64,000 nucleotides of DNA from Candidatus Peregrinibacteria bacterium (GCA_026395555.1 JAPLYO010000012.1:4817-68816), one strand, 5' to 3'. Positions 30,540 to 46,965 are shown, counted from the first letter of the stretch. Program-made: numbers and translations. Notes: generated by a model from the letters alone, not told the origin.

Positions 30540-30980
30540 ATGAAAATTCCTTTTTATCTCGTCACACCGGAAAAAATCGTCTTCCAAGAAGATGTTGAGT
30601 CGGCCACTATGCCTACGGTTGATGGAGAAATTACGGTTTTACCACATCACATCCCTCTTATTACCGCACTTGCACATGGTGTTATCCAGCTCAAAACAGC
30701 TGAAGAAACACATTATGTATCCGTTAGTCATGGTGTTGTAAAAGTTGATGCTATGGGAATCACCGTACTATCAGCACACGCCGAAAGAGCAGATGAGATG
30801 GTTATGGAACAGGTAGAAAAAGCTCTTGCCGATGCGAAGAAGCTCGCTGAGCTCAAGAAAGAAAGCGATGAGGAATATGTACAAGCTATGACCCTCGTCG
30901 CCAAAGAGAGCGCTCGACTCCATGCTCTCCGAAAACATCACACACGCATACAAGACATGTCAGGTAAATCTTCATCATAA
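30540..30980 (+). CDS. atpC: F1Fo ATP synthase subunit epsilon
   Basis: Immediately follows atpD. N-terminal beta-sandwich pattern (LVTPEKIVFQEDVESATMPTVDGEITVLPHHIPLITAL..G.I) and a C-terminal helical hairpin (EKALADAKKLAELKKESDEE). Confidence 0.85.
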   Translation: MKIPFYLVTPEKIVFQEDVESATMPTVDGEITVLPHHIPLITALAHGVIQLKTAEETHYVSVSHGVVKVDAMGITVLSAHAERADEMVMEQVEKALADAKKLAELKKESDEEYVQAMTLVAKESARLHALRKHHTRIQDMSGKSSS

Positions 30981-30989
30981 TTTGTACGA

Positions 30990-31235
30990 ATGGATAAAAA
31001 AGAGACGAAGGGAGAGCGGTCAGCGATGTGGTTAGCGTTGGATATAGCATGGGAACTCGGATACATCGTCGTCATCCCCATCGTCGTACTAGGATTCGCA
31101 GGAGCCTACGCAGATAAAAAATTCGGAACGTCGCCACTATTTCTCTTCATTGGAATCATCATCGCCTTCACCATTACCTCAATAGCAGCCTTCCGAAAGA
31201 TCAAAACCATAACTCAAGAAATTAACTCGATATAG
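30990..31235 (+). CDS. AtpZ/AtpI-like small membrane protein of the ATP synthase operon
   Basis: 81 aa with two TM helices. The pattern LALDIAWELGYIVVIPIVVLGFAGAYADKKFGTSPLFLFIGIIIAF resembles the AtpZ family. It sits directly upstream of atpB. Confidence 0.5.
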   Translation: MDKKETKGERSAMWLALDIAWELGYIVVIPIVVLGFAGAYADKKFGTSPLFLFIGIIIAFTITSIAAFRKIKTITQEINSI

Positions 31236-31236
31236 C

Positions 31237-32187: not shown

Positions 32188-32212
32188 ATTTATTATTTAA
32201 TACACCCAATTT

Positions 32213-32428
32213 ATGGATAAAAATCTTTTCGTAGCGCTTGTTATCGCTATTGGCGCAGCACTTCCAGCTTACTCAATCGGTAAGATTGGTGCACATGGTC
32301 TCGACGCTATCGGACGAAATCCAGAAGCAGCTCCAAAGGTTCAGACAGCTATGATTCTCGCTATCGCCTTCGCAGAAGCTATCGCTATTTACGCTCTCGT
32401 TGTTGCTCTTATCATCAAGTTCGTTTAA
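32213..32428 (+). CDS. atpE: F1Fo ATP synthase subunit c
   Basis: 71-aa helical hairpin: ..GLDAIGRNPEAAPKVQTAMILAIAFAEAIAIYALVVALII, with the ion-binding Glu in AFAEAIAIY. Confidence 0.9.
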   Translation: MDKNLFVALVIAIGAALPAYSIGKIGAHGLDAIGRNPEAAPKVQTAMILAIAFAEAIAIYALVVALIIKFV

Positions 32429-32495
32429 TACGACGCGAACGTAGTGAGCGTCATGCTCCCGTTCCAAATTTTCTCTTTTTTAATTATCTTTCCTC

Positions 32496-32996
32496 ATGGA
32501 ATTAATCTCAAAGTTAGGCATTAATCTCGGAATGCTTGCTGCACAGCTCGTAAACTTTCTTCTTTTACTTTTCATTCTTAAGAAGTTTGTTTATGGCCCA
32601 GTGCTCGAAAAATTAGAACAGCGTAGGAATATGATCGCTAAATCCGTTAGCGACTCCAAGGCTGCCGATGAGACACTTAAGGATATTGAAAAAGCACGTA
32701 GCGAGATGATTGAGAAGACAAAATCTCAGTCCCTTGCGATGATCGAGGCTGCTGCTGCGAGCGCTGAAGAGGCTAAAAACAGCATTACTGAGAGCGCACG
32801 CCGTGAGGCTCAGGCCATCTTTGAACAGAGTAAGCTCCAGATCGCACGAGAGAAGGAGAAGATGCTCAAGGAGGCTAGTGAAGAACTCGGAAGATTGGTC
32901 GTCAAGGCCGCCGAGAAGATCATTGAACGTGAGTTCACTCCTGAGGATCAGAAGCGACTTGCTATGCAAGCTACCGAACAGTTTGGACAGAAATAA
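32496..32996 (+). CDS. atpF: F1Fo ATP synthase subunit b
   Basis: A single N-terminal TM (LGMLAAQLVNFLLLLFILKKFVYGPV) followed by a long charged helix. Expected operon position. Confidence 0.8.
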   Translation: MELISKLGINLGMLAAQLVNFLLLLFILKKFVYGPVLEKLEQRRNMIAKSVSDSKAADETLKDIEKARSEMIEKTKSQSLAMIEAAAASAEEAKNSITESARREAQAIFEQSKLQIAREKEKMLKEASEELGRLVVKAAEKIIEREFTPEDQKRLAMQATEQFGQK

Positions 32997-33017
32997 TTTC
33001 CCCCTTAGATACTCTTC

Positions 33018-33407
33018 ATGAAACTTACCGCCAAACAGTACGCCGAAGTTCTCGTCAACGTCGTCTCAAAAGCACCTGCTGCCGCTGAACGATTCTCCGA
33101 GTCATTCTGGCTACTCTTAAAAGAAAATCGACAGGAAAAGCTTTTTAGCTCCATCATGCGTCATGCAAAAAAAATATGGAATGAAAAGCATAATATTGTC
33201 GAAGTAACAGCAACGGTCGCTGTCGCCCATGAAGAAGAGCAGCTTATCTCTCAACTTGAAAAAGTACTTGGGAAGAAAGTTCAACTTCATCTCAAGGTAG
33301 ATCCAAGTATTAAGGGCGGTATCATATTACAGGTCGATGACTCACGATATGATGCCTCTGTTTCCGGACGATTGTCGGCTCTCGCTCGACAATTTCAAGC
33401 GCTTTAA
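33018..33407 (+). CDS. atpH: F1Fo ATP synthase subunit delta (short, 129 aa)
   Basis: Lies between atpF and atpA. The C-terminal OSCP-like pattern is ..VDPSIKGGIILQVDDSRYDASVSGRLSAL. My recollection is that typical bacterial delta subunits are about 175-180 aa. Confidence 0.65.
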   Translation: MKLTAKQYAEVLVNVVSKAPAAAERFSESFWLLLKENRQEKLFSSIMRHAKKIWNEKHNIVEVTATVAVAHEEEQLISQLEKVLGKKVQLHLKVDPSIKGGIILQVDDSRYDASVSGRLSALARQFQAL

Positions 33408-33455
33408 ATTTACGAATATTTTACACCTATTTACTCTCTTTTACGCCCCTACCCT

Positions 33456-34967
33456 ATGCAAGACTCCGTACTAGACGCCCTCAAAAGGCACATTCAGGAC
33501 TTTCGATCTACCTCTACCGTTGAACACACTGGTACGGTTCTCGAGGTTGGTGATGGTATCGCTCGTTTGAGCGGCCTTAAGGACGTTAAATCGTCCGAGG
33601 TTCTCGAGTTTCCGAATGGCGTATATGGTTGGGCGCTCAACTTGGAAGAAGACACGGTAGGATGTGTTATCCTTGGTGATTCCAAGCAGGTAAAAGAAGG
33701 TGATGTCGTGAAGTCAACCGGACGGATTCTTTCTGTTCCTGTAGGCGAGGCGATGATTGGACGTGTCGTAAACGCCTTGGGTGAGCCACTCGATGGCAAG
33801 GGTGCTATCGCAAGCAAGAAACAGTACCCTGTGGAAAAAGTTGCTCCTGGTGTTATCACTCGTAAGTCTGTCGGCGTTCCGCTTCAGACCGGTATTCGTG
33901 CTATCGATGGCATGATTCCGATTGGTCGTGGTCAGCGTGAGCTCATCATTGGCGATCGTCAGACGGGAAAGACGGCTATTGCCATTGATACAATTTTGAA
34001 CCAAAAAGGAAAAGATGTGATCTGTATTTACGTAGCCATCGGCCAGAAGGAGTCAAAGATCGCTAAGATCGTTGCCGAGCTTGAGAAACATGGATCTATG
34101 GAGAACACTATTATCGTTGTCGCAGGTGCTTCTCATCCAGCTCCGTTCCAATTTCTCGCTCCGTACTCTGGTTGTGCCATTGGTGAGTACTTCGTCGATC
34201 AGGGAAAAGATGTTCTCGTCGTGTACGATGATCTTTCAAAACATGCATGGGCTTATAGACAGATTTCTCTCTTGCTCAAGCGTCCACCTGGTCGTGAGGC
34301 TTATCCTGGAGATATCTTCTACCTCCACTCCCGTTTGTTGGAGCGTGCTGTTTGTTTGAATGAGGAAAATGGTGGTGGATCGCTTACAGCGCTCCCTGTC
34401 ATCGAGACTCAGGCAGGTGATGTATCTGCTTATATTCCTACGAACGTTATCTCCATCACGGATGGTCAGATTTATTTGGAACCGGATCTCTTCTATAAGG
34501 GTATACGTCCGGCTATCAACGTAGGTCTCTCCGTTTCACGTGTAGGATCTGCCGCTCAGGTAAAGGGCATGAAGAAGGTTGCTGGTAAACTTCGACTTGA
34601 GCTCGCTCAGTATCGTGAACTTGCTGCGTTCGCGCAGTTCGGTTCCGATCTTGATGCCGCTACAAAACGACAACTTGATTTGGGTGCCCGTCTTACTGAG
34701 GTATTAAAACAAGATCAGTATGAGCCAACTCCTGTTGAGCAACAGATTACGATTATCTATGCTGCTATCAACGGTCATTTGAACGACCTAGAGACAACTG
34801 AGGTAAAGGCCTTCATGAAGGGCTTTTTCCACCACTTGTCTTCTGCTCAGAAGGTCTTCATGGATCAGTTTGCCGCCAAGCCAGAGATTACTCCGGAAAA
34901 TGAGGCAAAATTGAAGGAGATCATCAGTGGATACAAGAACGAGTTCAAGGCGAATAACGCGAAGTAA
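33456..34967 (+). CDS. atpA: F1Fo ATP synthase subunit alpha
   Basis: GDRQTGKTA Walker A; ..[39 protein letters not shown].. Confidence 0.95.
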
Positions 34968-34995
34968 GTCCCTTACATCATTCTAATTACTACCC

Positions 34996-35916
34996 ATGGC
35001 AGGAAGTCGAGAAATACGCAGAAAAATTAAATCTATCAAGGCAACGAAACAGATTACGCGAGCTATGGAGCTCGTATCTGCCGCTAAAATGAAACGTGCG
35101 GTTAACCATGCTCTCGGCATGCGTTCGTACGCCTCAACAGCCTTGATTATTCTCTCGCATCTTGCCGATAAAACGCATCCTGATCTTCATCCATTGCTCG
35201 AGGTACGCGATGAAACGAAGCATGTTCTCGTTGTTGCCTACTCATCAGATCGTGGACTCTGTGGAAGTTTCAATGCGTTACTCTTCAAAAAAGTAGTAGA
35301 GCATGAAAAAGAGTTAAAAAAAGAAATTCCCGGAGTAGAAGTTGATTACATTGCTGTTGGAAAACGTGTAAGTGAATTTTTGGCTCGCACAGGCCGAAAT
35401 GTCATAGCTTCTTTCACGGGCATGACCAATCGCCCAACACTTGAATCCACTCTCCCTGTAGGAAAAATTGCATTGGATGCCTACCTTGAAAAACGATACG
35501 ACCGTGTCGTTCTCGTATACCAGCACTTCATCTCTGCGCTTTTCCAGAAGCCTACTGCCTTTCAGCTGCTTCCGTTCAGTACCGAAACACTCGTCGAGAT
35601 GGGCGCAGAGCTCAATCTCTTCAAACACATGAATCAAGACGTTAAAGAAGAAGGCGAGGAATATCTCTTCGAACCTTCGGCCGATGTCATTCTCGAAGAG
35701 CTCCTTCCTCAGCTGACCCAAATGCAGCTCTTCCAGGCCGTCTTAGAGACGACTGCTTCCGAACACTCAGCTCGAATGGTCGCGATGCGTGCCGCCACGG
35801 ATAGTGCCACTGAAATGATGTCAGACCTCACCCTACACTTGAACCAGGTCCGTCAGGCTGGCATCACGCGTGAAATCGCCGAAATCTCGGCTGGTAAGAT
35901 CGCGTTGGGATTGTAG
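34996..35916 (+). CDS. atpG: F1Fo ATP synthase subunit gamma
   Basis: N-terminus MAGSREIRRKIKSIKATKQITRAMELVSAAKMKRA. C-terminus ..LNQVRQAGITREIAEISAG. Confidence 0.9.
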   Translation: MAGSREIRRKIKSIKATKQITRAMELVSAAKMKRAVNHALGMRSYASTALIILSHLADKTHPDLHPLLEVRDETKHVLVVAYSSDRGLCGSFNALLFKKVVEHEKELKKEIPGVEVDYIAVGKRVSEFLARTGRNVIASFTGMTNRPTLESTLPVGKIALDAYLEKRYDRVVLVYQHFISALFQKPTAFQLLPFSTETLVEMGAELNLFKHMNQDVKEEGEEYLFEPSADVILEELLPQLTQMQLFQAVLETTASEHSARMVAMRAATDSATEMMSDLTLHLNQVRQAGITREIAEISAGKIALGL

Positions 35917-35935: not shown

Positions 35936-38900
35936 TTATTCTCCTCCTGCTTCTGCCTGCGCAGCTGCTTTTGCTTTTGCTCTGGCTACCAAGACTGGAT
36001 CCGGAGTTCCACTGTATCCTTTGAGGTTACAGCTGTTGACGATCTTGAATAGTTCTTCTTCACCAATGGAGTTAATGGCGCTATTAAGCTCTGGACCAAA
36101 CTCCTCGATAAAATTTTCAATTTCTTTCTGACCCTTTCCGTCTTTATCCTCCGAAGCTTTTTCAATTTTTTTAAATAACAACTTCCATCTGTCGCCTCTT
36201 TCTGCTTTCGCTCCAATCTTTAAAATCATATTTCTCATCTGATCTATATGGAATTTCGATGGCGTTAATGGATCTACTACCGATCCGTCATTCTCTAAAA
36301 CGTTGTCAGAAATAACCTGCTTTTTCGTATCGCTCTTCAGGAAGCGTCCTGTAATAATTCCATCAAAATTCACGTACGAAAGAATGGCTTTTTCGAGGAG
36401 AGTTCTGTTTTTCGTTGCAGCGAGCGTTCGTGACCATTCGCTGAATCCCGGGAATACGTTGAGATATCCCGGTGGTGAGAAGTACTTCTTATCACCTGCC
36501 GATGAGCCACACATATTTCTCACCTGCCGATAATCGAGACACGGCATGAAAAAGTGAGCGTCATCATGATCCATACCCTCGGCTCCTCGCGATGCCTTCA
36601 GAGTTCTCGTCTGCGTTGTATGATGAGGCATAATTTTTTTCCAGAAGAAGTCATGTACATTTTTTCCTGGACCAAACTTCTTTTTGCTTGTGTCCGAATC
36701 ATTATCAAAAAAATTCGCCATCACCTTGAAATCGCTTACCGTGAACGTTCTATTGTAATATGGCGGGACCTGACTTTGCATCGTCGTGAGCGTCAAAGGC
36801 TTATTCTCATCCTTTGCCTGCGTGAAGAAGTCGAGCCATGGCTGCTTATTGCAAAGGCCGTTCAAATCGGCAACACGGTCAAGCGTAAGGAGATTTGTGG
36901 CTACACCCATGACGATATAATAGAGTCTATTTTCTGCGTTCGACTTCCCCTCTTCGATAGCGTATCGGATAAACTCCTCATACTTCTGCGGATCCACCTG
37001 ATTTCCTCGCATATGTTCACTTAGTAACATTTTCATGCCACCGCTCAAGCCATTTGGGTCATTCTCGAGTGCCGCAGCATCGCTTTTGTACTTGTCCAAA
37101 CCAGACTTGTACGCACCCTTGTTTTTTGCCCTCCAGGAGTCATAAAGATTATCATCTCCCCAGATATTTTCGAAGGCCTCCTTGAGGTAATCCATACCTT
37201 TTTTGGGTATGCCTGATTCACTCATGCCTACGATAGCGTACGCGTTACCATCATTTGGAATCGGGATTTTCTTATCATTTGAAAGAGCAGGAATACGGTT
37301 AATCGCCTTCCAAGTACGTACATCGTCCCATCTCATCATACCTTTCTCGGTGAGAACCTCGATACAGGCTTTGATCTGATCCTGATTTGAACTTCCGTTC
37401 AAAAGTCCACGAATTTCGAAGTCACCCATGTGTTCCATGGCATGCTTGAACTTTCCGACCTCCTCGTGTTCGGTGTCTTCCTTGATACGCAACATTTCCG
37501 TACCAATGAATGGCAGATGCGAACCGAATTTAGCGAAGCGATTTTTCATTCTACGTTCCCATGTACGATTCCAGTACTCCCAAATGTGCTTGCCGAGCTC
37601 TCCGACATCCTGAGCACTTATAAACTGCGTCTCATTCCATATGTGCATGATCGTTCCCTCATGCGGAATGGTGACGTTTGCCTTTTGCTTAGCTGCCTCT
37701 GCATCCATCCAGTCTTTTTGCTGGGCCTCCTCTGGAGTTAATGCTGGGACTGCGTGAGCACCATGAGCATCTTCCTTTGCATGAGCGTCGTGAAGGGCGT
37801 GCTCTTCCTCCTCCAGCTCCTGCATATCGGCAATCTCATCTAGCTCTCTCTCGAGTCGTTTTGCGTACCTGTCTCGCGCCTCGATGCGCTTGCTCTCTGG
37901 AATCATGGCCGTCGCAGCTGTCGCGACGACGAGTGGATCATTTGAGCGCCAGTTGGCACTCATCGCATGTCGGAGAAGCTCTGCAGGGCGGTAAGACGCC
38001 CTACTAATACGCGTCATCTCAACATCATCCCCCTTCGTAATTTCCCTTACGGTAAGTACATTTTTTTGCTCAATAGGGCCATAACTTAGTTGCCCACCTT
38101 TCTGAAAATTGACCGGTGCCGCACCTGGATTTCCATGAATGGCCTTCCAATTATTATAGGCCTCCTGCGCCTCTGTGTTGGTTTTGAGATGTGGCACAAC
38201 GCCAAATCGCTTAATCCACTGCGCAAACTCTCCATAGGTGAGTCTCTTTTTTCCAATAGGATTCGTGAGCATTTGCCCGGCCACCGTGCCGTTTTCTGGG
38301 TATACGACATTTACATCCCGATCGAGCTCAATGAACCCATCCGGATGAATTTTCGCGATTTTTGCCATATTTGTTTCGCTGCCTTCTCCTTTTTTTATTT
38401 CATACTCCAGCTCCATCCCTTCCTTGATGGGAAGCTTCATCGCATCGAACTGAATCTCGTTATCAAGCTCTCCTTTCCCGTCAATAATCTGATGAGCCTG
38501 TGTATCTACTACCCACTTTTTGAAGCGACCAAACGTCTCTCTGCCCGCCCCGGTCACTACCACAAGAGGCATGTTTTCTACATCAAACATCTCACCGTTC
38601 CACTCAATCTTTTCTCCCGTAGGTTTATCGAGATATACGCCTTGAACCTCAGTGGTTACCCACTTGCGCTCAATAGTCTTGTCGTCGCGAAGTACCTCCA
38701 TCATGTATTGAATTTTTGTTCCCGGTTTGAGATTAATTCCGGATTGCTTGCTGCAGGCCACAATGTTTTGTTTGAGACTTATGCGCTTCATCGTCTCCTC
38801 CATGCGTGGAGCGAGCTCCTTGATGGTAATGGCATCGTAATTTTTTCCAATTTTTATCTGAATATCCTGAAGGAATCGAAGTCGCTCTTCGATATGACGC

Positions 38901-39925
38901 ATCGTATCTTCGGGAATTAATCTTGAAAGATCTACACCTGTTTTTTCTCTTGCCTCGGCCATTCCTCTCTTGATATCTTCGCGATTAATTGGTTTTTCTG
39001 ATTTGCGAATGGCATCTCCAAAACTTTCACTCAGCATGATATCGATAGCCTTTTCGATTTTTGGATCACCCTTTGCGACAGATTCTTTTGTCTTGTTTGT
39101 CAGCTCACCCCATGAGTCGAGATGCGACTTGCTCGCCTCGCCAAACTCTTTGATCATGGCTCGAACTTTCTCCGCATCTTCGGGTGAGTCGATTTTTGAA
39201 CTTAAATAATCCTGCGCCTCTACGCCTACAAACTCCGTAAGACTCTTGCGGAAACGATCTTCTTCGCTATCAAAAGCACTTACTCCTGCAATATCATGAA
39301 GAGCTTTTTTCTCGTTGAGAGGATTCTCCTTCATGAAGTTCCTGAAGTCTTTTGCGGACTTCGGATTGCGAATAAATTCTTTAGCTGCATTTTTATGTTT
39401 GTCACTATTGCTGTCGAGCGCACTGAGCGTGATATCAAAATCTGATGGAGAAATTCTTCCGGTGAGCTCATGCTCGGCGAGATCTCTGCGAAACAATGGC
39501 TCGTTGCCATCTCCTTTCGGCTCATGAGAACACTCGTAGAGTTTATTAAATCTATATGACGTAATTGAACCTTGCGTGAGGCGCAATGCAAGCGTGCGAT
39601 CCATAAACATACCACTTTTCGCCAATCTTTTTGCCTTTTCGTAATTCCCCGTGCTCAACTTCCCATCGCTCTTCATCTTATTCAAATTTTTCATGAGATC
39701 ATCGGCATTCGTCGAATTGAGCGAACCCATAATTTTATTCCCCATACTGTCCGTCATTACATCAAGCGGAGTAGCTGGCTTCTTGAGACTCTCGTCATCG
39801 TCTGTAGATTTTCCTCCCGATCCGGATCCACTTGAACCTGCAGCGAAAAAAGCCCTCCTGCCCGTGAACAATACGTTCTCGGCCTTGAGGCACTTCAGGA
39901 GCTGGTGTGTATACCAGTTATTCAT
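35936..39925 (-). CDS. Very large hypothetical protein (1,329 aa; soluble, no signal peptide or TM); last gene of the five-gene block
   Basis: Uninterrupted ATG-started ORF. Gly/Ser tract near the N-terminus (AAGSSGSGSGGKSTDDDE). His/acidic linker (ELEEEEHALHDAHAKEDAHGAHAVP). Ala/Lys tail (ARAKAKAAAQAEAGGE). I recognise no family. Confidence 0.75.
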   Translation of the reverse strand: MNNWYTHQLLKCLKAENVLFTGRRAFFAAGSSGSGSGGKSTDDDESLKKPATPLDVMTDSMGNKIMGSLNSTNADDLMKNLNKMKSDGKLSTGNYEKAKRLAKSGMFMDRTLALRLTQGSITSYRFNKLYECSHEPKGDGNEPLFRRDLAEHELTGRISPSDFDITLSALDSNSDKHKNAAKEFIRNPKSAKDFRNFMKENPLNEKKALHDIAGVSAFDSEEDRFRKSLTEFVGVEAQDYLSSKIDSPEDAEKVRAMIKEFGEASKSHLDSWGELTNKTKESVAKGDPKIEKAIDIMLSESFGDAIRKSEKPINREDIKRGMAEAREKTGVDLSRLIPEDTMRHIEERLRFLQDIQIKIGKNYDAITIKELAPRMEETMKRISLKQNIVACSKQSGINLKPGTKIQYMMEVLRDDKTIERKWVTTEVQGVYLDKPTGEKIEWNGEMFDVENMPLVVVTGAGRETFGRFKKWVVDTQAHQIIDGKGELDNEIQFDAMKLPIKEGMELEYEIKKGEGSETNMAKIAKIHPDGFIELDRDVNVVYPENGTVAGQMLTNPIGKKRLTYGEFAQWIKRFGVVPHLKTNTEAQEAYNNWKAIHGNPGAAPVNFQKGGQLSYGPIEQKNVLTVREITKGDDVEMTRISRASYRPAELLRHAMSANWRSNDPLVVATAATAMIPESKRIEARDRYAKRLERELDEIADMQELEEEEHALHDAHAKEDAHGAHAVPALTPEEAQQKDWMDAEAAKQKANVTIPHEGTIMHIWNETQFISAQDVGELGKHIWEYWNRTWERRMKNRFAKFGSHLPFIGTEMLRIKEDTEHEEVGKFKHAMEHMGDFEIRGLLNGSSNQDQIKACIEVLTEKGMMRWDDVRTWKAINRIPALSNDKKIPIPNDGNAYAIVGMSESGIPKKGMDYLKEAFENIWGDDNLYDSWRAKNKGAYKSGLDKYKSDAAALENDPNGLSGGMKMLLSEHMRGNQVDPQKYEEFIRYAIEEGKSNAENRLYYIVMGVATNLLTLDRVADLNGLCNKQPWLDFFTQAKDENKPLTLTTMQSQVPPYYNRTFTVSDFKVMANFFDNDSDTSKKKFGPGKNVHDFFWKKIMPHHTTQTRTLKASRGAEGMDHDDAHFFMPCLDYRQVRNMCGSSAGDKKYFSPPGYLNVFPGFSEWSRTLAATKNRTLLEKAILSYVNFDGIITGRFLKSDTKKQVISDNVLENDGSVVDPLTPSKFHIDQMRNMILKIGAKAERGDRWKLLFKKIEKASEDKDGKGQKEIENFIEEFGPELNSAINSIGEEELFKIVNSCNLKGYSGTPDPVLVARAKAKAAAQAEAGGE

Positions 39926-39974
39926 AAGTGTAGGGGGTTATTAGTCCTTCTACCTCTGTCCTGTCTTTGATTGT

Positions 39975-40002
39975 ATTTTACTATATTTTTCATGTATTGC
40001 AA
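39975..40002 (-). promoter_or_regulatory. Putative sigma70-type promoter upstream of the 1,329-aa gene
   Basis: On the minus strand: TTGCAA (40002-39997), a 16-nt spacer, TAAAAT (39980-39975). It lies within the only sizeable gap (121 nt) of the five-gene block. Pattern match only. Confidence 0.3.
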
Positions 40003-40046
40003 GTTTTTGGTTGGCTATGAGAAACTTCTGCTTTGGTACTTTGTTA

Positions 40047-42542
40047 TTATGGGGCGGCATTTATAGCGGCAACGAGTGCTGCCGCATCAGCATCTGGCAT
40101 GATCTTATCCCCGGCGGCCTGCCCTCTAATATGTGCCAGCGCAGCATTCATGGCTGCCGTTCTCTTCGCCTTGTCAGCAACGCCTTCAGCGACGAAGTGC
40201 TTCGCAATTTCCTTTCCTCTATCTGCGGCTGAAGCCATTCCGCCATCCTTAAGTTTGCGGTTAAATTCGTCAATTGCTGCGGCTGTTTTATCTGGGTCGG
40301 GAGTTGATCCACCCTTCAATTCACCCACTACTACTGCGACGACCGATCCCGGCTTTTTCATATCAGCACTCACTTCAGCTGGAGTTTGCTTAACGGGCGT
40401 AGCTGCAGCAGGCTGGTCACTTGGCATAAATTTCGGCAGAAGTTTCTCTACCTGTGGCATATCTTTTCTCTCTACCGCTTCTGAAAATTCCTTAAAATCC
40501 TTGTTATATCCTGCTGCACCTACGCGAACTAAGTCGGGGCTTGTATTTTTTATTCGTTTTACCGCTCCTTCGAGCTCCTTGAATTCTTCAGAGTCCGCCT
40601 TAGGATTATGTCTTAAAGACTCAATATCTGGATGACTCTTTAGCGCCAAGGTGAGCTGGTCAATCGATTTAACGTCTTTCATCTTCATTGATACCTCAAC
40701 ATTAACTCCAAAAGCCTTGAGTGCATCCGATCTTCGTGTCGCATCAGCATTACTCAACATTGTCTCCATAGCATATTTAGCCTGATCTAAACCAACACCA
40801 ATCTTTCCCATGTCCTGAAGTTCGTGATGGCCGGCGTGAGGTGTGGCGACCTGGAAGAGAGGAGCGTATTTGAATGGAGCCTTGGCGAGCCATGTACCGG
40901 CACTCTGTGCGCTGTCCATAATGGTTTTCGTGACGCCATCGGCGATCGTGTCGCTGCTAGCGGCCTGAATACCGATCCAGAGGAATACGATGCTTCCGAT
41001 AGCGACCAAGAGATCCTGAAAGGTATCAATACTCGAAGTTGGCGCATTACTTGCGAGGGCGCCCTGACCGTTATAGTTAATATTTTGCATCGTTGCTAGC
41101 AAGATAAATCCAATGGAAAGGACAAAACCAATAAGCATCGGGGATATCAGCGTTTTAATAATCTTACTCGTATGTCCTCCTGCTCCGGGAATCGTAAATG
41201 TCGCATTGAATACTATCGCCGGTGAAAAAATAATGATCATCCAGAGTACCGCAGCGCGGGCAAAAAGAATCACAATCAATACGATAAAGCTTACCGCGTA
41301 AATCAAAAACATAACTACTGAGAAGAGCATGTTAATTGTAAGCGAAGAGAGGCCGCCTTTGGCAGCTGCCGCTGAAACCTTCGGAAGATCCTGGATATTC
41401 ATAAACTTAATCGCAATAATCATCAGGGAGCTATCAATGTTCCAACTATTGAGATACTTCTTTACCTGAGGGTTCATCATCAAATTTCCATCCTTATCCG
41501 GAACACACATAGCCTTGCTATCGGCAGCGCTTCCAGCTTTCGGCGCATAAACCGCTTCTACTCCTTTGATACATTTCGCCTTATCTGCCGCTTTTGTTAT
41601 CGCAGAACACTGCGTAGCGATCGCCTTATCTTTTGCCTCTGTTCCAATTCCCTGAGCAAGCTGTCCGCTTCCTAGCGTGTCGCAAATAGGTCCTTGCGCT
41701 GCGTTTACTTTTAGAAGAGTAGCTTGCGTGAGCGCCGCGTCGGTTCTCCCAATAGAGAAGGCGAATGTCGTACCGACGTTAATCACATCAAGGACGACTT
41801 TTACGCCGGCATACGAGAAGTTCACAAGAATCAATCCAAGAATAATTTTTGGAAGAGCCTTTTTGAGCTCCAACATGGAGACGGTCTCACCAAGACCTAC
41901 GACGTTGTAGAGTGCGACGGCGAGCAAGAGGAGAACATAAGCGATATTTACGAGGTTTCTTACCTGAATCCACATCTCACTTAATTTCAAATCGATGGCT
42001 CCTGTATAGAGGAAGTCACTCTTCATAAGACCACCGGCAAACATAAGTAATGGCCAGAGTAGGTGCGAAATCATACTTAAAACGATGGCGAGAACCTTTG
42101 AGAGCATCACGATAATGTCATTATTCGGCAATACCTCTCCTACCGTCTGACCACCTAACGTTGTGAGCGGAGCAGCAGATGCGCTAGCCGAATTGGTTGA
42201 GGCACCGACCGCTGCGTTGTATTCCTGCTGGGCCGAGTTGTTTGCGGCATCGAGTTTTTGCTGTGCCGCCGCTTTTGCGGCGTCATCTGCTCCTGGTGCA
42301 GCTATCGCTTTGTCATATTCCGCCTGAGCCGCCGTCTTTGCAGCATCGAGGGTCTTTTGCGCCTCCGCCTGGGCTGCATCAGCCTTTGCGGCTGCTGCAG
42401 CATCGGCCGTTGGCGTTGGGGCCGCAGCATCCTGCGCATGCACCGTACTCGCCGCGAACACATTCGTGAAACTCGCGAGTGTCACCACGACGAGGAGGCT
42501 GAGGGCAAGTGTTCTGATGATGTGAGTGCGTGTGTTTTTCAT
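40047..42542 (-). CDS. Polytopic membrane protein with VirB6/TrbL-like architecture (831 aa)
   Basis: Signal peptide (LALSLLVVVTLASFTNVFAASTVHA). Ala/Gln/Lys-rich helical ectodomain (..KTAAQAEYDKAI..NSAQQEYNAAV..). About 7 TM helices with a 4-Cys loop between TM3 and TM4 (..GPICD..TQCS..AKCIKG..AMCVPD..). A soluble C-terminal domain of about 270 aa follows. Confidence 0.75.
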   Translation of the reverse strand: MKNTRTHIIRTLALSLLVVVTLASFTNVFAASTVHAQDAAAPTPTADAAAAAKADAAQAEAQKTLDAAKTAAQAEYDKAIAAPGADDAAKAAAQQKLDAANNSAQQEYNAAVGASTNSASASAAPLTTLGGQTVGEVLPNNDIIVMLSKVLAIVLSMISHLLWPLLMFAGGLMKSDFLYTGAIDLKLSEMWIQVRNLVNIAYVLLLLAVALYNVVGLGETVSMLELKKALPKIILGLILVNFSYAGVKVVLDVINVGTTFAFSIGRTDAALTQATLLKVNAAQGPICDTLGSGQLAQGIGTEAKDKAIATQCSAITKAADKAKCIKGVEAVYAPKAGSAADSKAMCVPDKDGNLMMNPQVKKYLNSWNIDSSLMIIAIKFMNIQDLPKVSAAAAKGGLSSLTINMLFSVVMFLIYAVSFIVLIVILFARAAVLWMIIIFSPAIVFNATFTIPGAGGHTSKIIKTLISPMLIGFVLSIGFILLATMQNINYNGQGALASNAPTSSIDTFQDLLVAIGSIVFLWIGIQAASSDTIADGVTKTIMDSAQSAGTWLAKAPFKYAPLFQVATPHAGHHELQDMGKIGVGLDQAKYAMETMLSNADATRRSDALKAFGVNVEVSMKMKDVKSIDQLTLALKSHPDIESLRHNPKADSEEFKELEGAVKRIKNTSPDLVRVGAAGYNKDFKEFSEAVERKDMPQVEKLLPKFMPSDQPAAATPVKQTPAEVSADMKKPGSVVAVVVGELKGGSTPDPDKTAAAIDEFNRKLKDGGMASAADRGKEIAKHFVAEGVADKAKRTAAMNAALAHIRGQAAGDKIMPDADAAALVAAINAAP

Positions 42543-42565
42543 TTTTATGTTATGTTCCTATTCGC

Positions 42566-43027
42566 CTATACATTTCCGAAGAAGGGAAACGTGAGAGCCC
42601 CACCCAATAAAGCGGCTGAGGATATACCTCCAAGAATAAGGGTATTACGTAGTATATGTGATTTTTTTTGAGGAGCCATTGGGGTAATGAATGTTCTTTT
42701 TGGCTGAGATCTTTCTATCTGCTCGAGACGTTCATCTTCTCTTCGTTTTGCCTCCTCCATACCTTTACCTTCTGCATTTTGCATTGCGAGATCGGTAGCG
42801 CTCTGTTGCTCATCAATCTCATTCATCGCATTGATTCTTGTCGCGCCCTGCCTCATAGCTGCTTGGGTTACTGCACTCCCTAAAACCTTGAGCTTTGAAG
42901 ATTGATAGAGTCCTTCTTCCGCCATGAGAGGAAGTAATACTTCTGTTTTTCTCGTCGTATTCATGTCGTCCCTATCCATCATGATGGTTTTTGCCGCGAA
43001 AGCCTTTTTGTTATTCAAAATGTCCAT
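42566..43027 (-). CDS. Tail-anchored hypothetical protein (153 aa)
   Basis: Charged helical body with a single C-terminal hydrophobic segment (LILGGISSAALLGGALTFPFFGNV*). It starts 3 nt after the upstream gene's stop. Confidence 0.55.
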   Translation of the reverse strand: MDILNNKKAFAAKTIMMDRDDMNTTRKTEVLLPLMAEEGLYQSSKLKVLGSAVTQAAMRQGATRINAMNEIDEQQSATDLAMQNAEGKGMEEAKRREDERLEQIERSQPKRTFITPMAPQKKSHILRNTLILGGISSAALLGGALTFPFFGNV

Positions 43028-43030
43028 GTT

Positions 43031-44626
43031 TTATTTTTTTACTCCTTCTATACGTTTAAGATCATCGATCCATTGATTAAATACTTCTGTATTTTTCAAC
43101 ATTTTCGAGGAGCAGACCGTGCTAGCATACTGCTCAATTTCATCCTTGTCTTTTCCGCTCTTGGCTTCCTTGAGCAGCGCGATCAATGTCGGATTTACCG
43201 GCTTACTGGCAATACGTGTTTTTGTTCCTGTATCATTACCCTCGGCAATTTTCAGCATGTCATCAATTCTCACATCCGCCGGTTCGTGCGCTATCTCCTT
43301 CTTTTCTCGTATCATACTTATCAGTTCGATCATTCCCGTCGCATTTTCTGAGGTCTTTCCTCTCATAGGATCTACAAAATATGTGTTTGTCACTCCTGGC
43401 TTATCGATAACAAGCTGACATACAGCTAATTTCTGCGCCTGAGTCTCCAGTGTTTTTGCGTCCGCACTTCCCTTGATCCACTCGAGAACGCTTGGGTTTC
43501 CCACAAGTGCACTACCGGCGAGAATACCTCCCACATCAGCAATCAACCACGGACTTTTGAGATACTCCGACAAATCATTTCTATAGGCGATCAGTGAGAG
43601 CGCTGCGTTCGCTCCTCTCCATGCCATCAACGCAAACCCACCTATGTAACGTGGTTCGAAAAATTTGATAGCGAGATTTTTATCCATATCCGCACGAATA
43701 CCCGTATCGATATTGGCGCGAATCATTTTTGCTTTTGCCTGACCAATTTCAATAGTGGACTCGAGATTCTTCTGCTGATTTTCGTCAAGAATAAGCCCCT
43801 TTGCCTTCATCTTTGCGAATAGTCCATCGTCCTTATCTGTCAGTTGAAGCTGCGTCAGATACCCAGAACTTCCTAATGAAGTAATGAGCCCGATCGCTCT
43901 ATCCGAAGGCATGGTATTAATAATATGTTCCGCAAATGTCTTTCTCTCAGATGGACTCATGGCATACAAGAGCGTAATTGCTCCTGATGCCTCAAGAAGT
44001 TTCATGCTTGCATCTGCACTAACCTCACCCGGAGTTTTTTCCGGAGGGATTTTGGCGATGATAAAATTATAATCGTCAGGCGTAAGCTTTGCATGTGTGC
44101 TTATTTTTCTCAGAATGTCGGCATATTTTGGTTCCTTGGAAATCTCCCAATATATTTCGCGTCCACGTTCGGCGAGATCGAATAATACATTGAGATCGAT
44201 CTTTCCCTTATTTGGCCCCTCCTTATCGTTTTTCCTGGCGGCCTCCACGAGAAAGGCGGTGATCATGGAGTAATATTGATTCACATCATCTTCGCAATTT
44301 TTGAAAAATCTTTCATTCCATAACGCTCTTCCTGCTGCATCTACATCGGATTTATGTGCTTCGGCTTCACAGAGAGCATAGGCTCGATCGATATACAATT
44401 TCATCGCGTTCAATGCTTTATTTTTTTGATTTCCATATGATTCTACAAACTCCCTTTTACCAAGATGCTGTTCGAGTAAATCGTCGATTTTTTTCATATC
44501 TTTCTCTTTTGCCGGCTCGACTGTTTCATGCTTCCACTTAATGAGCTCCACGCTTTCCGGGCGGTTCATCCAGTCGCTATTCTCCACTGGCGGTGTCGGT
44601 GATGATGATGGTACTTCTGGGGGCAT
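43031..44626 (-). CDS. Hypothetical protein (531 aa) with a central hydrophobic hairpin
   Basis: ATG-started ORF. The hydrophobic pair YIGGFALMAWRGANAALSLIAY ... WLIADVGGILAGSALVG is flanked by charged helical regions. Confidence 0.7.
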   Translation of the reverse strand: MPPEVPSSSPTPPVENSDWMNRPESVELIKWKHETVEPAKEKDMKKIDDLLEQHLGKREFVESYGNQKNKALNAMKLYIDRAYALCEAEAHKSDVDAAGRALWNERFFKNCEDDVNQYYSMITAFLVEAARKNDKEGPNKGKIDLNVLFDLAERGREIYWEISKEPKYADILRKISTHAKLTPDDYNFIIAKIPPEKTPGEVSADASMKLLEASGAITLLYAMSPSERKTFAEHIINTMPSDRAIGLITSLGSSGYLTQLQLTDKDDGLFAKMKAKGLILDENQQKNLESTIEIGQAKAKMIRANIDTGIRADMDKNLAIKFFEPRYIGGFALMAWRGANAALSLIAYRNDLSEYLKSPWLIADVGGILAGSALVGNPSVLEWIKGSADAKTLETQAQKLAVCQLVIDKPGVTNTYFVDPMRGKTSENATGMIELISMIREKKEIAHEPADVRIDDMLKIAEGNDTGTKTRIASKPVNPTLIALLKEAKSGKDKDEIEQYASTVCSSKMLKNTEVFNQWIDDLKRIEGVKK

Positions 44627-44646
44627 TTTATTCTATTTCTAAAAAA

Positions 44647-45204
44647 TTATAACCGAAGTAATCGTGTACAAATATCCATGAGACCTTCTTGTTTCCCCTC
44701 CCACTCCACAATGTGGCGCGTGAGAAATTCTCTGATCTCTGCGGGGTCTTGGTCCATCAGCTCGATACCAATATCTGGCATTAAGTGCTGATAGGTTCGC
44801 ACGTACAGTCTCGAGATGAATGGCCCATAATGGACAATCCAAAAACCCTTTATATTACTGAAGGGTATGCCATGTTCTCCCATCTTCACGCCATAATCCG
44901 AGAGCTTAATTTCTATCTCCTGCGTCGGCTCCATGTGGTCGAGGGCGTAGACGATAGCGGCAGTCATAATCGCCACCACGAAAAACCAGTTCGCCGTATA
45001 TGCTCCATAAAAAAGCAATGCAGCAATAATAACTGAAGCAACGATCATCCATATCTGTCCTTTCTCAACCTTGTGTCGGAGTGGTGCGCTCCAGGTAAAT
45101 ACCGCCTGATCAAATCGAGATGGATTTTGCTGTGCACCATTGGCTCGCATCTCCTGATGTTGTTTTTTTCGATTCTGGATTTTTTCTTTTATTTTCTTGA
45201 ACAT
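44647..45204 (-). CDS. Two-TM hypothetical protein (185 aa) with C-terminal soluble domain
   Basis: TM hairpin IWMIVASVIIAALLFYGAY / WFFVVAIMTAAIVYAL, followed by a beta-rich domain of about 90 aa. It is the first gene of the tightly spaced block. Confidence 0.6.
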   Translation of the reverse strand: MFKKIKEKIQNRKKQHQEMRANGAQQNPSRFDQAVFTWSAPLRHKVEKGQIWMIVASVIIAALLFYGAYTANWFFVVAIMTAAIVYALDHMEPTQEIEIKLSDYGVKMGEHGIPFSNIKGFWIVHYGPFISRLYVRTYQHLMPDIGIELMDQDPAEIREFLTRHIVEWEGKQEGLMDICTRLLRL

Positions 45205-45460: not shown

Positions 45461-45736
45461 TTATTTCATACGGTTCCCCTTACTCCACGGATTGCATCGT
45501 ATGATCTGCCAGACTCCTTTCAAAAATCCAACCACCATTCCATCGGCTTTCAATCTCTCCTTCATATACTGCGAACATGTAGGCTCGAACTTACAGTACC
45601 CATAGGGGAAGAATCTCTTCAGTATACCGTGATCGGGCGAGAAAGTATGTTGATATATCTCGATACATATAATAAAAACATCTCGAGGAATGTGCCAGAT
45701 TCGAGTCAGTAAATTTGTATACTTGAGGCGGTTCAT
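45461..45736 (-). CDS. yidD: Membrane protein insertion efficiency factor YidD
   Basis: IYQHTFSPDHG....CKFEPTCSQYMKE..K.......G....I.RCNPWSKG is the YidD (PF01809) signature. The ATG at 45736 shares one base with the upstream TGA (TGATG). The track ORF starts one codon earlier, at TTG 45739. Confidence 0.8.
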   Translation of the reverse strand: MNRLKYTNLLTRIWHIPRDVFIICIEIYQHTFSPDHGILKRFFPYGYCKFEPTCSQYMKERLKADGMVVGFLKGVWQIIRCNPWSKGNRMK

Positions 45737-46965
45737 CAATAGTAGTTGCTAGGTACCTTCTTCACGCCATGATCGATTACCTCGAAATGAAGGTGAATTC
45801 CCGTTACTCCACGAACGTTTCCCGTGTGACCCATGCGACCAATAACCTCTCCCTGCGTGACCTTGTCTCCGACTTTTACCGTGAGATATGTCATATGACC
45901 ATAGAGCGTTTTTACTCCATTTCCATGATCAATAACAACGTGATTACCGTATCCTCCGGCCCATACTCCCATCGTAGCCGTTACGACTGTACCGCTTGCA
46001 GCAGCCCAAATCGGTGGCTCTGAACGATTAGCGATATCATAGGCGTAGTGACCTGAATGGAAGCCCTGCGTAAGTACACCGACCGTTGGGAAGATCATGA
46101 ACTTACCGGCACTTGGAGATGATGATGAGTTGGAGAGGGATGTTCTTTCAACATTTCTTGCCGGAGCATCACGACCAGTAGCTCTGGCGATCGTTCTTGC
46201 TGATGGTTGTTGTACTGTTGGAAGCGGCTTAGCATCAGGAACGAAGATAATCTGTCCCTGCGTAATTACTCCCCCCTGAAGGTTATTCATAGCAACAATT
46301 TTCTGAGCATCAACCTTATACAAGGCGGCGATCTTCTCTATGCTCTGCCCTGTTGTCACACGGTGACTAATACCGTCACTTGGTGGAATATTTAATTTTT
46401 GACCAATCTTCAAAACGCTCGTCATCGTTAGACCATTCTCCCATACCAATGTCTCCGCCTTAATATTAAAGCGCTTTGCAATTAATGAGAGATTGTCGCC
46501 TGTATCGACGGTGTATTGCGCTATGTCTTTGAATGATCGCTGCGTATGTGTGGTCTGTGGGTTCGCCTTTGTAAAGTATCCATCCTGATCGGCGACCAAT
46601 GTTCCCTCCTGACTAATCTGATTGAGGTACTCATCACCATATTGAGCATAGGAGACATCGAACGTACTACCGAGCACCGCCGTGACACTCATAATTCCCA
46701 CGGTGAGAACCGCGAGTCTCTTATAGAGCGTGGCTGCCGTTGGGGCGACCACTCGAGCCCGGTGCTTTGCCTTGAGATTAGAAAAAACATGGGATGCCAA
46801 CTTAATACCGGAATAGGTTCCGATAAGGCTGCTTGCCGCGAGGATGCCATCATACGACTTCTTGAACGCATGGCCAAGCATACTATTCTTACCAAACACC
46901 CTTTCGTGGCGTCGAAGACGAGCGGCAACTGCTACCTTTGATGTAATGACTGACGTGACAGACAA
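45736..46965 (-). CDS. LysM-domain M23 (LytM-type) peptidoglycan endopeptidase
   Basis: N-terminal TM (LAVLTVGIMSVTAVLGS). Two LysM repeats (YTVDTGDNLSLIAKRFNIKAETLVWENGL...IGQKLNIP; HRVTTGQSIEKIAALYKVDAQKIVAMNNL..GQIIFVP). M23 motifs HSGHYAYDI (HxxxD) and GVTGIHLHFEV (HxH). The start is uncertain: TTG 46965 or ATG 46881. Confidence 0.85.
   Translation of the reverse strand: MSVTSVITSKVAVAARLRRHERVFGKNSMLGHAFKKSYDGILAASSLIGTYSGIKLASHVFSNLKAKHRARVVAPTAATLYKRLAVLTVGIMSVTAVLGSTFDVSYAQYGDEYLNQISQEGTLVADQDGYFTKANPQTTHTQRSFKDIAQYTVDTGDNLSLIAKRFNIKAETLVWENGLTMTSVLKIGQKLNIPPSDGISHRVTTGQSIEKIAALYKVDAQKIVAMNNLQGGVITQGQIIFVPDAKPLPTVQQPSARTIARATGRDAPARNVERTSLSNSSSSPSAGKFMIFPTVGVLTQGFHSGHYAYDIANRSEPPIWAAASGTVVTATMGVWAGGYGNHVVIDHGNGVKTLYGHMTYLTVKVGDKVTQGEVIGRMGHTGNVRGVTGIHLHFEVIDHGVKKVPSNYY

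Follow-up and report, generated by a model that had tools for sequence, protein, structure and literature searches.

Here, we show using gene-order comparison, dN/dS analysis, and profile and fold searches that five adjacent genes of a Candidatus Peregrinibacteria genome belong to an operon that is vertically inherited throughout the class. Their order is repeated in about 100 independent loci, far more than chance could account for. Judged from sequence features, the operon may encode an undescribed cytoplasmic-membrane complex built on two of its products, D and E, a reading to which we give nearly even weight.

The genes lie in a 64,000-nt stretch of DNA, which was analysed as a whole and is called the window below. 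They appear there as five minus-strand ORFs, A to E, of 185, 531, 153, 831, and 1,329 aa, that together span positions 35936–45204 with intergenic gaps of 20 nt (A–B), 3 nt (B–C), 23 nt (C–D), and 121 nt (D–E). A preliminary description of this DNA had given five co-directional genes with these limits and spacings, and the ORF listing agrees with it exactly. Its account of the neighbours, with atp genes on one side and LysM-M23/yidD, rpsF, and ssb on the other, also holds. The features referred to in the text are the following:

ending at 35916, plus strand: atpA and atpG (ORF listing)
35936–39925, minus strand: gene E, 1,329 aa, cytoplasmic (ORF)
36014–37699, minus strand: E residues 743–1304, conserved C-terminal domain, the part best conserved across clades (invariant columns)
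36560–36571, minus strand: DHDD cluster of E, D1119–D1122 (coordinates checked)
37955–38716, minus strand: E residues ~404–657, a small beta-barrel plus a following helix, repeated three times (AlphaFold, pLDDT 70–87)
40047–42542, minus strand: gene D, 831 aa, probable membrane core of the block (ORF)
40953–42134, minus strand: D residues 137–530, conserved TM core including the central loop domain between the TM groups (conservation)
41946–41972, minus strand: D motif W191-IQV-R195-NLV-N199 (coordinates checked)
42566–43027, minus strand: gene C, 153 aa, tail-anchored, TM at residues 129–148 (ORF and hydropathy)
43031–44626, minus strand: gene B, 531 aa (ORF)
44647–45204, minus strand: gene A, 185 aa, core member (ORF)
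45461–45739: yidD-like ORF
45736–46965: LysM-M23 gene, then rpsF and ssb

Gene order was counted over 95 non-redundant related loci, with testable cases as denominators. E lies directly downstream of D in 65 of 69 loci, at a median distance of 59 nt, and A lies upstream of D in every testable locus (56/56). Co-occurrence in relatives thus bears out the earlier proposal that the five genes are one unit. The order A-B-(C)-D-E is maintained at 24–50% protein identity in L001, L004, and L005, and is also found in 31 species genomes and 80 metagenome loci; A, B, D, and E, with C as an optional member, occur together and in this order across Peregrinibacteria, Peribacteria, and genomes labelled 'Gracilibacteria'. 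D and E are not neighbours in L116 and L117, the two loci that diverge most. Neither D nor E was found on any of the viral contigs, and tblastn with the TM core of D matched none of 72,556 plasmids. Purifying selection acts on every one of the five genes, with dN/dS values between 0.04 and 0.2 (A, 0.04–0.07; E, 0.06–0.08; B, 0.10–0.18; C, 0.10 between close relatives), and the constraint on E and A is comparable to that on atpA and atpG.

Does the conserved order reflect a single machine? It could partly reflect the inertia of small, highly syntenic genomes, as the flanking rpsF-ssb, purL, atp, and M23-yidD genes are also syntenic over part of the clade. Taken further, there would be no machine at all, and unrelated lineage-specific genes would be held together by the general synteny of genomes that rarely rearrange; the fast evolution of B and C and the dispensability of C are compatible with this. 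However, the flanks change while A, D, and E stay together: atp adjoins the block in just 16 of 48 loci, and M23-yidD is inverted or displaced elsewhere. The genes are also tightly packed, both in the window and, to judge from the D–E distance, across loci, and all products but E are anchored in the membrane, with topologies that complement each other. We therefore consider an assembly of unrelated genes very unlikely.

The same counts define the limits of the block. The M23 enzyme, which the preliminary description had tentatively drawn into the system, is the nearest upstream neighbour in only 8 of 45 loci, and several lineages have it on the opposite strand, so that neither M23 nor yidD is retained as a member. 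A link to ATP synthase was likewise rejected on the adjacency of atp given above. A co-directional ssb or rpsF is the upstream neighbour in 29 of 45 loci, and the position of the operon directly after rpsF-ssb(-rpsR) in most lineages suggests constitutive expression at a housekeeping level.

What are the five proteins? Scans against Pfam, NCBIfam, PADLOC, and PHROGs gave no match at curated cut-offs for any of them, in keeping with the earlier remark that no family could be recognised, and no gene was found to match a known, unrelated function. The PADLOC and PHROGs scans held no meaningful match that would identify a defence system or a mobile element. Neither PDB sequences nor PDB folds gave a significant match for the proteins of the block; single-sequence and profile searches of the PDB with A, B, D, and E returned only coiled-coil or low-complexity noise. 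When the D, E, and A families were scanned against Pfam member by member, only a weak PH-like signal in A appeared. Relations to flotillin/NfeD, YidC, ComEC, and terpene cyclases (DxDD) were also considered and dropped, the relevant Pfam models giving no match. A literature search for this five-gene block found no description.

Protein A has a short cytoplasmic N-terminus, two adjacent TM helices at about residues 46–91, as its earlier designation as a 2-TM protein implied, and a beta-rich C-terminal domain of ~95 residues (hydropathy). Recurrent sub-threshold Pfam matches point to a PH-like type for this domain: DUF6232 matches 7 of 17 family members (best E-value 0.007) and DUF5673 matches 2 of 17 (best 5e-5), all below the curated cut-off; A of the window itself reaches 12.9 bits with the DUF6232 model, whose cut-off is 27.4. 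In its layout, with a small beta-rich domain after two TM helices, A resembles membrane-anchored bacterial PH-like proteins (Pfam DUF5673, DUF6232, bPH), but every match to DUF5673 and DUF6232 stays below the cut-off. To our knowledge these families have no known function, and they therefore leave the module unexplained.

B and C are the variable part of the block. B is present in every locus, occupying a slot of 490–660 aa after A, but is divergent and fast-evolving, with no invariant column among 19 orthologues and no match in Pfam, NCBIfam, or the PDB. It is mostly helical, lacks a signal peptide, and has one central, moderately hydrophobic segment (residues 327–349 in the family average). 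The hydrophobic stretch on which it had been called a hairpin-TM protein thus exists, but in the window's sequence it stays below the Kyte-Doolittle threshold of 1.5, and a single TM is also possible; B probably either spans the membrane once or forms a re-entrant hairpin. C has its one TM at the C-terminus (129–148 of 153), which agrees with its description as tail-anchored. It behaves as a variable accessory member of 129–622 aa, missing in some lineages (L004, L016, L022, and L032) and reaching 535–622 aa, again with a C-terminal TM, in others (L005, L029, and L036).

D carries a signal peptide (residues 6–34) followed by an Ala-rich helical region, about seven hydrophobic helices in two groups (137–254 and 396–530) separated by a hydrophilic central domain (255–395), and a hydrophilic, poorly conserved C-terminus of ~300 residues (531–831). 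Hydropathy and an AlphaFold model with a mean pLDDT of 70.6 agree on this topology, which had been proposed from the first (signal peptide, Ala-rich ectodomain, about seven TM helices, large soluble C-terminus). Sixteen residues are invariant in 118 sequences, and several of these are polar and lie inside TM helices (R195, N199, N241, D252, R429, and S440-P441); the central domain holds two invariant cysteines, C287 and C346. The family comprises 723 clusters at 50% identity (E ≤ 1e-30) and has no Pfam entry.

This architecture raises the leading specific rival to an undescribed complex, namely that the inner-membrane core of the class's T4SS, in a divergent form, is encoded by this block, with D as its 'missing' extended-VirB6 channel subunit, A, B, and C standing in for VirB3- or VirB8-like small subunits, E acting as a lineage-specific cytoplasmic adaptor, and the powering VirB4 and coupling ATPases encoded elsewhere in the genome. 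Extended VirB6 proteins have 700–900 aa, at least five hydrophobic helices, and central and C-proximal hydrophilic domains (PMC12857230), and D has this architecture, which is a resemblance and not homology. The likeness is close to TcpH of the Clostridium perfringens plasmid pCW3 (a monoderm MPF_FA T4SS): the two proteins have 831 and 832 aa, and both show a hydrophobic segment at the N-terminus, hydrophobic helices in two groups with a hydrophilic domain of ~130 residues between them, and a long, poorly conserved hydrophilic C-terminus. In addition, a 2025 survey of Patescibacteria found VirB4 in 18 of 20 classes, and reported VirB6 as 'absent' from the GTDB class Gracilibacteria, 'suggesting extreme sequence divergence', with TrsD and VirB3 unlinked from virB4 (PMC12102498); a separate, unrecognised VirB6 locus is therefore to be expected there. 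Weak precomputed matches to TrbL_3 (PF19590) also occur on 3 of 30 D homologues (P0026, P0029, and P0030), all in the same module.

Similarity searches did not extend this resemblance. The TrbL_3 signal was not reproduced, as D and 26 homologues had no TrbL-type match at E ≤ 10 in hmmscan, and nine further family members had none at E ≤ 1. D has no curated-threshold match to the VirB6/TrbL models PF04610, PF19478, and PF19590, the first of which the preliminary description had put forward as a check on the 831-aa protein; nor was a match to an unrelated transporter family seen. We also built profiles of TrbL (7 sequences) and TcpH (4 sequences) from plasmids and compared them by hhalign, with reversed-sequence decoys and atpB as a negative control. 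The D profile (118 sequences) reached a probability of 0.2% against TrbL and 1.6% against the TcpH family (score 27, against 22–24 for reversed decoys), values on a par with the decoys, but the positive control, TrbL against TcpH, itself reached only 1.3–12%, so that power is low and a remote link, for instance to VirB6, could be missed. As Pfam and hhalign miss TcpH, an accepted VirB6-like protein, the negative VirB6 results carry little weight. A Foldseek search of the D model against the PDB gave no match at E ≤ 0.001; 44 matches appeared at E ≤ 10, none of them a T4SS chain, so that no likeness to a solved VirB6 structure such as R388 TrwI was seen, with sensitivity limited by the use of a whole-chain, medium-confidence model. 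PDB profile searches likewise returned no T4SS chain. The proposal that D is VirB6-like is favoured by architecture and by weak TrbL_3 matches on three distant homologues; sequence, profile, and fold comparisons gave no significant similarity.

The gene content around D also differs from that of an MPF_FA T4SS, in that no VirB4, T4CP, VirB8-like, or hydrolase genes lie alongside it. A phmmer search (E ≤ 0.01) of all ORFs of the window and of ~110 related loci, extended by up to 10 kb on either side, found no homologue of VirB4 (TcpF, TrbE), T4CP (TcpA, TraG), VirB11, VirB3, VirB8, or a hydrolase. By hhalign, A, B, and E stay at decoy level against VirB3/TcpD/TcpE, TcpC, VirB4, and T4CP, and A, B, and D do so against TrbD, TcpD, TcpE, and TcpC. 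Moreover, D is chromosomal, class-wide, and vertically inherited, unlike TcpH-type systems, which belong to mobile elements, and it is coupled to E; we know of no T4SS that has a non-ATPase cytoplasmic subunit of some 1,300 residues, let alone as its most conserved part.

The chromosomal T4SS of Patescibacteria, which comprises VirB4, TrsD, PrgI/VirB3, VirB6, and VirB2-like pilins and is essential in Ca. Southlakia epibionticum, offers another comparison. Like the block, it is a conserved, chromosomal, non-conjugative membrane machine of the same phylum, and the class of this genome is reported to have dispersed T4SS genes and no detectable VirB6 (PMC12102498). However, these systems are defined by VirB4, the hallmark ATPase of all known T4SSs, which is absent from the window and from the ~110 related loci with their flanks, and other patescibacterial VirB6 proteins were found with an ordinary VirB6 HMM (PMC12102498), whereas D is not. 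Taking both sides together, we regard a T4SS core as unlikely, with a substantial residual probability. A further likeness is to the firmicute type VIIb core. In both cases one very large subunit is accompanied by small single- or double-pass proteins, by a bitopic protein whose TM is central, and by a polytopic protein whose ectodomain is helical. The type VIIb core consists of EsaA, EssA, EssB, and EssC, the last being a membrane-anchored FtsK/SpoIIIE ATPase; E, in contrast, lacks a TM and a conserved P-loop and is matched by nothing in Pfam or the PDB, and thus is no EssC-type ATPase. No WXG100 gene was seen.

E, the largest protein, has neither a TM segment nor a signal peptide by hydropathy, in accordance with the earlier statement that it lacks a targeting signal. 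A short conserved N-terminal helix is followed by a Gly/Ser linker, a helical region, the three repeats with small beta-barrels, a linker rich in acidic residues and His, and a C-terminal domain of ~560 residues that is strongly conserved. Among 21 orthologues at 21–52% identity, 24 residues besides the start Met are invariant and are concentrated in 766–1160; they include E810, D868, N876, E983, G993-K994, R1107, K1110, and the cluster D1119-H1120-D1121-D1122. The AlphaFold model covers residues 130–1329 and was made with only nine close homologues (a renewed search started from a diverse alignment found these nine again and no more); its mean pLDDT is 53, with only the beta-barrels confident and values below 50 over much of the conserved C-terminal domain, the DHDD stretch included. 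The only Foldseek matches of the beta-barrels are weak, to triple-Tudor or SH3-like barrels at E ~0.04, and E has no match in Pfam, NCBIfam, the PDB, PADLOC, or PHROGs. Split E genes were also considered as possible UGA recoding, which was rejected because the splits are frameshifts.

The statement that none of the five proteins has a Walker motif needs amendment, since a literal Walker-A string, GSGSGGKS, is present at residues 33–40 of E (nt 39806–39829). We reject it as a coincidence, as it sits in the Gly/Ser linker and is absent from orthologues, and the conclusion that E is no ATPase therefore stands. Together with the lack of T4SS ATPase homologues nearby, this upholds the view of a block with no ATPase.

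Is E a component of the complex or its cargo? The preliminary description saw in E a partner or substrate handled by a channel. In its strongest form the block would be a device for host interaction or predation, with D as an export channel and E as a secreted cargo or effector. An epibiotic, predatory life with elaborate surfaces is described for cultured Absconditabacteria, a group that the Vampirococcus paper places with Gracilibacteria and Peregrinibacteria (PMC8080830). D and E are nearly always neighbours (65/69), and the short conserved N-terminal segment of E, after which comes a flexible linker, might serve for targeting. However, E is the most conserved protein of the block, with 87–89% identity where D has 60–63%, and its ATP-synthase-like dN/dS is the opposite of what is seen in effectors and adhesins. 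It has no signal peptide, the block offers no ATPase to export a folded protein of 150 kDa, and it often lies directly downstream of ribosomal protein genes. A predation device with E as its cargo is thus hardly likely at all. That E is the most conserved of the set argues for a core subunit and against a secreted substrate.

How might an undescribed complex built on D and E work? Most of its mass would be cytoplasmic, comprising the whole of E, two thirds of B from its N-terminus, most of C, and both ends of A, and the topology of D suggests that its central and C-terminal domains face the cytoplasm as well. D would form the membrane core; the Arg, Asn, Asp, and Ser-Pro residues that never vary within its TM helices recall proteins that pass or act on substrates inside the membrane. 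E may dock on the cytoplasmic face of D as a catalytic or substrate-handling subunit; its invariant acidic, His, Arg, and Lys cluster, including DHDD, resembles a metal-dependent active site. As such a machine would have no NTPase of its own, the membrane potential might supply its energy, or else a partner whose gene lies elsewhere. The roles of D as a conduit and of E as a catalyst are suggested by conservation patterns. A more far-reaching version, to which we give less than even weight, is that the machine is wholly new and unrelated to any secretion system. A seven-TM D with a polar intramembrane path and a 150-kDa enzyme E of novel fold would then be fixed in the core genome of the class, with a housekeeping envelope or uptake function indispensable to lipid- and cofactor-auxotrophic cells.

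In conclusion, a block of ~9.3 kb, a sizeable outlay for genomes that the literature calls small, is conserved about as strictly as ATP synthase in a whole class of uncultured, host-dependent, ultrasmall CPR bacteria. None of its ~3,000 residues can be assigned to a family, and D alone accounts for more than 700 clusters at 50% identity. About 100 orthologous loci are ready for structure prediction and co-evolution analysis. If D is a divergent VirB6, it would fill a gap in the 2025 literature, in which Gracilibacteria have VirB4 but no detectable VirB6, and would reveal a T4SS core that has parted from its ATPases and gained a new giant subunit. Otherwise, the block would represent a new membrane machine together with a new large enzyme fold.

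The compact module of minus-strand genes A to E is a conserved, constrained, co-directional and tightly spaced set that encodes four proteins anchored in the membrane and a large cytoplasmic one. The ORF listing places the five genes exactly where the preliminary description had them, with intergenic gaps of 20, 3, 23 and 121 nt, and the sequences of D and E are deposited in identical form as entries of one Candidatus Peregrinibacteria MAG:

44647-45204, minus strand: A, ORF of 185 aa
43031-44626, minus strand: B, ORF of 531 aa
42566-43027, minus strand: C, ORF of 153 aa
40047-42542, minus strand: D, ORF of 831 aa (hypothetical protein NTX63_01185)
35936-39925, minus strand: E, ORF of 1,329 aa (hypothetical protein NTX63_01180)

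Hydropathy and the AlphaFold model agree with the architectures proposed earlier for A, C, D and E. In A, a short N-terminus and two TM helices precede a beta-rich C-terminal domain, and the A family gives repeated sub-threshold matches to the PH-like membrane families DUF6232 (7 of 17 members) and DUF5673 (2 of 17); C is tail-anchored. The helical B lacks a signal peptide, and the TM hairpin once assigned to it is one central, moderately hydrophobic segment with no clear hairpin; no invariant residue was found among 19 orthologues. In D, a signal peptide leads into an Ala-rich helical ectodomain that is variable; two groups of TM helices follow, with a hydrophilic domain of 140 residues and two invariant cysteines between them, and the C-terminal 300 residues are poorly conserved. 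Across 118 sequences, sixteen positions of D never vary, among them R195 and N199 (motif WIQVRNLVN), N241, D252, R429, S440-P441 and P468, and most invariants lie inside or at the ends of TM helices. E is helical in its N-terminal third; three small beta-barrel repeats, its sole confidently modelled part, resemble Tudor/SH3-like barrels in weak Foldseek matches to the PDB and are followed by an acidic/His-rich linker, while its invariant residues (E810, D868, N876, E983, G993-K994, R1107, K1110, D1119-H1120-D1122 and N1156) are concentrated in a C-terminal domain of ~560 residues. The topologies put most of the five proteins' combined mass in the cytoplasm. The earlier claim that no Walker motif is present fails to the letter, as the Walker-A string GSGSGGKS occurs at residues 33-40 of E, but holds in substance: the string is part of a Gly/Ser linker and lacks conservation, and we dismiss it as a working Walker A.

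None of the five proteins reached a curated cut-off in Pfam or NCBIfam or had a meaningful match in PADLOC or PHROGs. Pfam scans of all sequences aligned for D, E and A found no family except the PH-like signal of A, the full set of PDB sequences returned coiled-coil noise only, whether searched with single sequences or with profiles, and Foldseek against the PDB gave nothing at E<=0.001 for the models of D (mean pLDDT 70.6) and E (mean pLDDT 53.4). We found no description of the module in the literature. On the evidence obtained, we provisionally place it outside every known kind of system.

The gene order is well conserved. In three other lineages (L001, L004, L005), D homologues at 28-50% identity stand in the same order as in the window, with a ~183-residue 2-TM protein, a ~510-residue protein, a variable tail-anchored protein, the ~800-residue polytopic protein and a soluble protein of 1,300-1,500 residues. 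When one genome per species was scanned, E turned up in 31, almost all of which carry the label Peregrinibacteria, Peribacteria, Gracilibacteria or Patescibacteria group, with D and A in place wherever contig extent permitted, and a D-seeded metagenome scan added 80 further loci with the same arrangement. Across 95 non-redundant loci, E lies directly 3' of D in 65 of the 69 testable (median gap 59 nt) and A is found 1.5-3.6 kb upstream of D in all 56 testable; the A-D interval always contains a B-like protein, which is 490-660 aa long and has a hydrophobic segment near its centre, and often also a tail-anchored C of 129-622 aa, which is missing in some lineages. An exhaustive profile search at E<=1e-30 collected 723 clusters (50% identity) of the D family, the best 150 of which match the 753-position profile over nearly their full length and comprise proteins of ~600-920 aa. 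Neither D nor E was found on the viral contigs searched, and the TM core of D had no tblastn match on plasmids.

Several loci depart from this picture. The most divergent, L116 (D at 9174-11480) and L117 (D at 9797-12049), retain A, the B-like protein and D; no recognisable E was found next to D, and an ORF of 1,245-1,396 aa without similarity to E lies ~4.7 kb downstream. In L033, L034 and L036, E is broken into 2-4 pieces by frameshifts, which rules out UGA codons as the cause; these split copies are assembly errors or pseudogenes. The E-bearing L034 (contig PLCH01000003.1, 3.4 kb) is deposited in a 'Chitinophagaceae' MAG, most likely through a binning error, since the other 30 loci are labelled Peregrinibacteria, Peribacteria, Gracilibacteria, Patescibacteria-group or unclassified 'bacterium'. 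D is a single long ORF in L106 (9707-12175) and L112 (256-1921) only when UGA is read as Gly (table 25), so the family reaches recoded Gracilibacteria/Absconditabacteria-type lineages.

Comparison of the window with two Peribacteria relatives gives dN/dS values of 0.04-0.08 for A and E and of 0.09-0.21 for B, C and D; atpA and atpG come out at 0.02-0.06. These ratios are approximate because dS is saturated. On shared contigs E is 87-89% identical and D 60-63%, making E the slowest-evolving member of the module. This conservation speaks against E being a secreted substrate, and we consider a role as cargo of the module most improbable.

In the window, the module is flanked by housekeeping genes:

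29093-35916, plus strand (opposite to the module): atp operon
45461-45739, on the side away from atp: yidD-like ORF
45736-46965, same side as the yidD-like ORF: LysM-M23

Beyond the last two lie rpsF, ssb and purL. Unlike the module order, the flanks vary across related loci. Upstream, the module most often adjoins ssb or rpsF, encoded on the same strand (29/45 loci); the M23-yidD pair adjoins it in 8/45 and is inverted in other lineages, so the M23 enzyme is not part of the module. ATP synthase is likewise ruled out as a part, since atp lies convergently downstream at just 16 of the 48 loci. As the order of A, D and E is kept while the flanks vary, A-B-D-E forms the core and C is accessory; that these are unrelated genes held together by synteny seems very improbable. 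The usual place right after rpsF-ssb(-rpsR) suggests that the module is constitutively expressed. A promoter-like site in the D-E gap (39975-40002, minus strand; TTGCAA, 16 nt, TAAAAT) could be an internal promoter for E, in a region where such sites occur at chance level.

A comparison of the window with L005, L029, L030, L031 and L036 shows that the atp operon has been rearranged. Its order is beta-epsilon-I-a-c-b-delta-alpha-gamma in the window and closer relatives, and other lineages have the usual ...alpha-gamma-beta-epsilon order; where adjacent, E is convergent with the last atp gene in both arrangements. A further orphan family of 300-400 aa ('X'; L004 6852-7754, L007 6246-7454, L008 14260-15450, L026 2390-3613, L005 4056-5207) borders the module in a number of lineages: some have it upstream of A, and the closest relatives of the window carry it between E and atpG. 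The window itself lacks X, PDB sequences gave no match to it, and its L004 and L005 members carry no precomputed Pfam assignment.

Other loci in the window also drew our attention:

310-798, plus strand: type IV pilin-like gene (N_methyl and T2SSG)
834-13157, plus strand, downstream of the pilin-like gene: ORF of 4,107 aa with FG-GAP, Ig-like and SLH matches
13154-17454, plus strand: four co-directional ORFs, no Pfam match
26485-28938, minus strand, between thrS and the atp operon: ORF of 817 aa, no Pfam match
53800-55341, plus strand: purH
55923-56948 and 58082-59407, plus strand, adjoining purH: two paralogous DUF1246+DUF1297 genes

The stretch 310-17454 (plus strand) forms another block of unknowns and is probably a surface or adhesion locus. 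The domain combination DUF1246+DUF1297 is of the PurP type, that of archaeal-style purine synthesis enzymes.

Could the module be a strongly divergent T4SS core? D corresponds to the 'extended VirB6' of monoderm T4SSs, defined by 700-900 aa, at least five hydrophobic helices, and central and C-proximal hydrophilic domains (PMC12857230), and resembles TcpH of pCW3 in layout and length. Three distant D homologues, all within this same module, have weak precomputed matches to PF19590 TrbL_3. Moreover, in a 2025 survey that covered 3,035 Patescibacteria genomes, VirB4 was present in 18 of 20 classes, whereas in class Gracilibacteria VirB6 homologues were 'absent ... suggesting extreme sequence divergence' and TrsD and VirB3 were unlinked to virB4 (PMC12102498), as would suit such a core. 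However, hmmscan at E<=10 did not recover the TrbL_3 matches, and hhalign of the 118-sequence D profile gave 0.2% against the TrbL profile and 1.6% (score 27) against the TcpH family, with reversed decoys at 22-24 and an ATP-synthase a-subunit control at ~20. Compared with VirB3, TcpD/TcpE, TcpC, VirB4 and coupling proteins, A, B and E scored no better than decoys. These negative profile results carry little weight, since TcpH itself has no Pfam match and TrbL against TcpH reaches only 1.3-12%. No T4SS homologue was found within 10 kb in ~110 related loci or in the window, and the module locus lacks the hallmark T4SS ATPase. Judged by architecture D would pass as an extended VirB6; the homology searches gave it no such placement, and the profile comparisons had little power to decide. 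We therefore regard a T4SS core as unlikely, though a serious contender.

Our general model, held tentatively and at slightly less than an even chance, is that the module proteins assemble into a single cytoplasmic-membrane complex that has no NTPase of its own. D would be its core, where invariant polar residues within the bilayer would suit a conduit or an intramembrane active site. E may be the cytoplasmic catalytic or substrate-handling subunit, as suggested by its constraint, the strongest in the module, and its invariant acidic/His/basic cluster. A and B could serve as anchoring or regulatory subunits, and C as an optional tail-anchored adaptor.

T4SS core or not, the module is a well-defined, testable target, for which ~100 orthologous loci have already been gathered. 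It offers a large orphan membrane-protein family together with an orphan 150-kDa protein that is constrained like ATP synthase.
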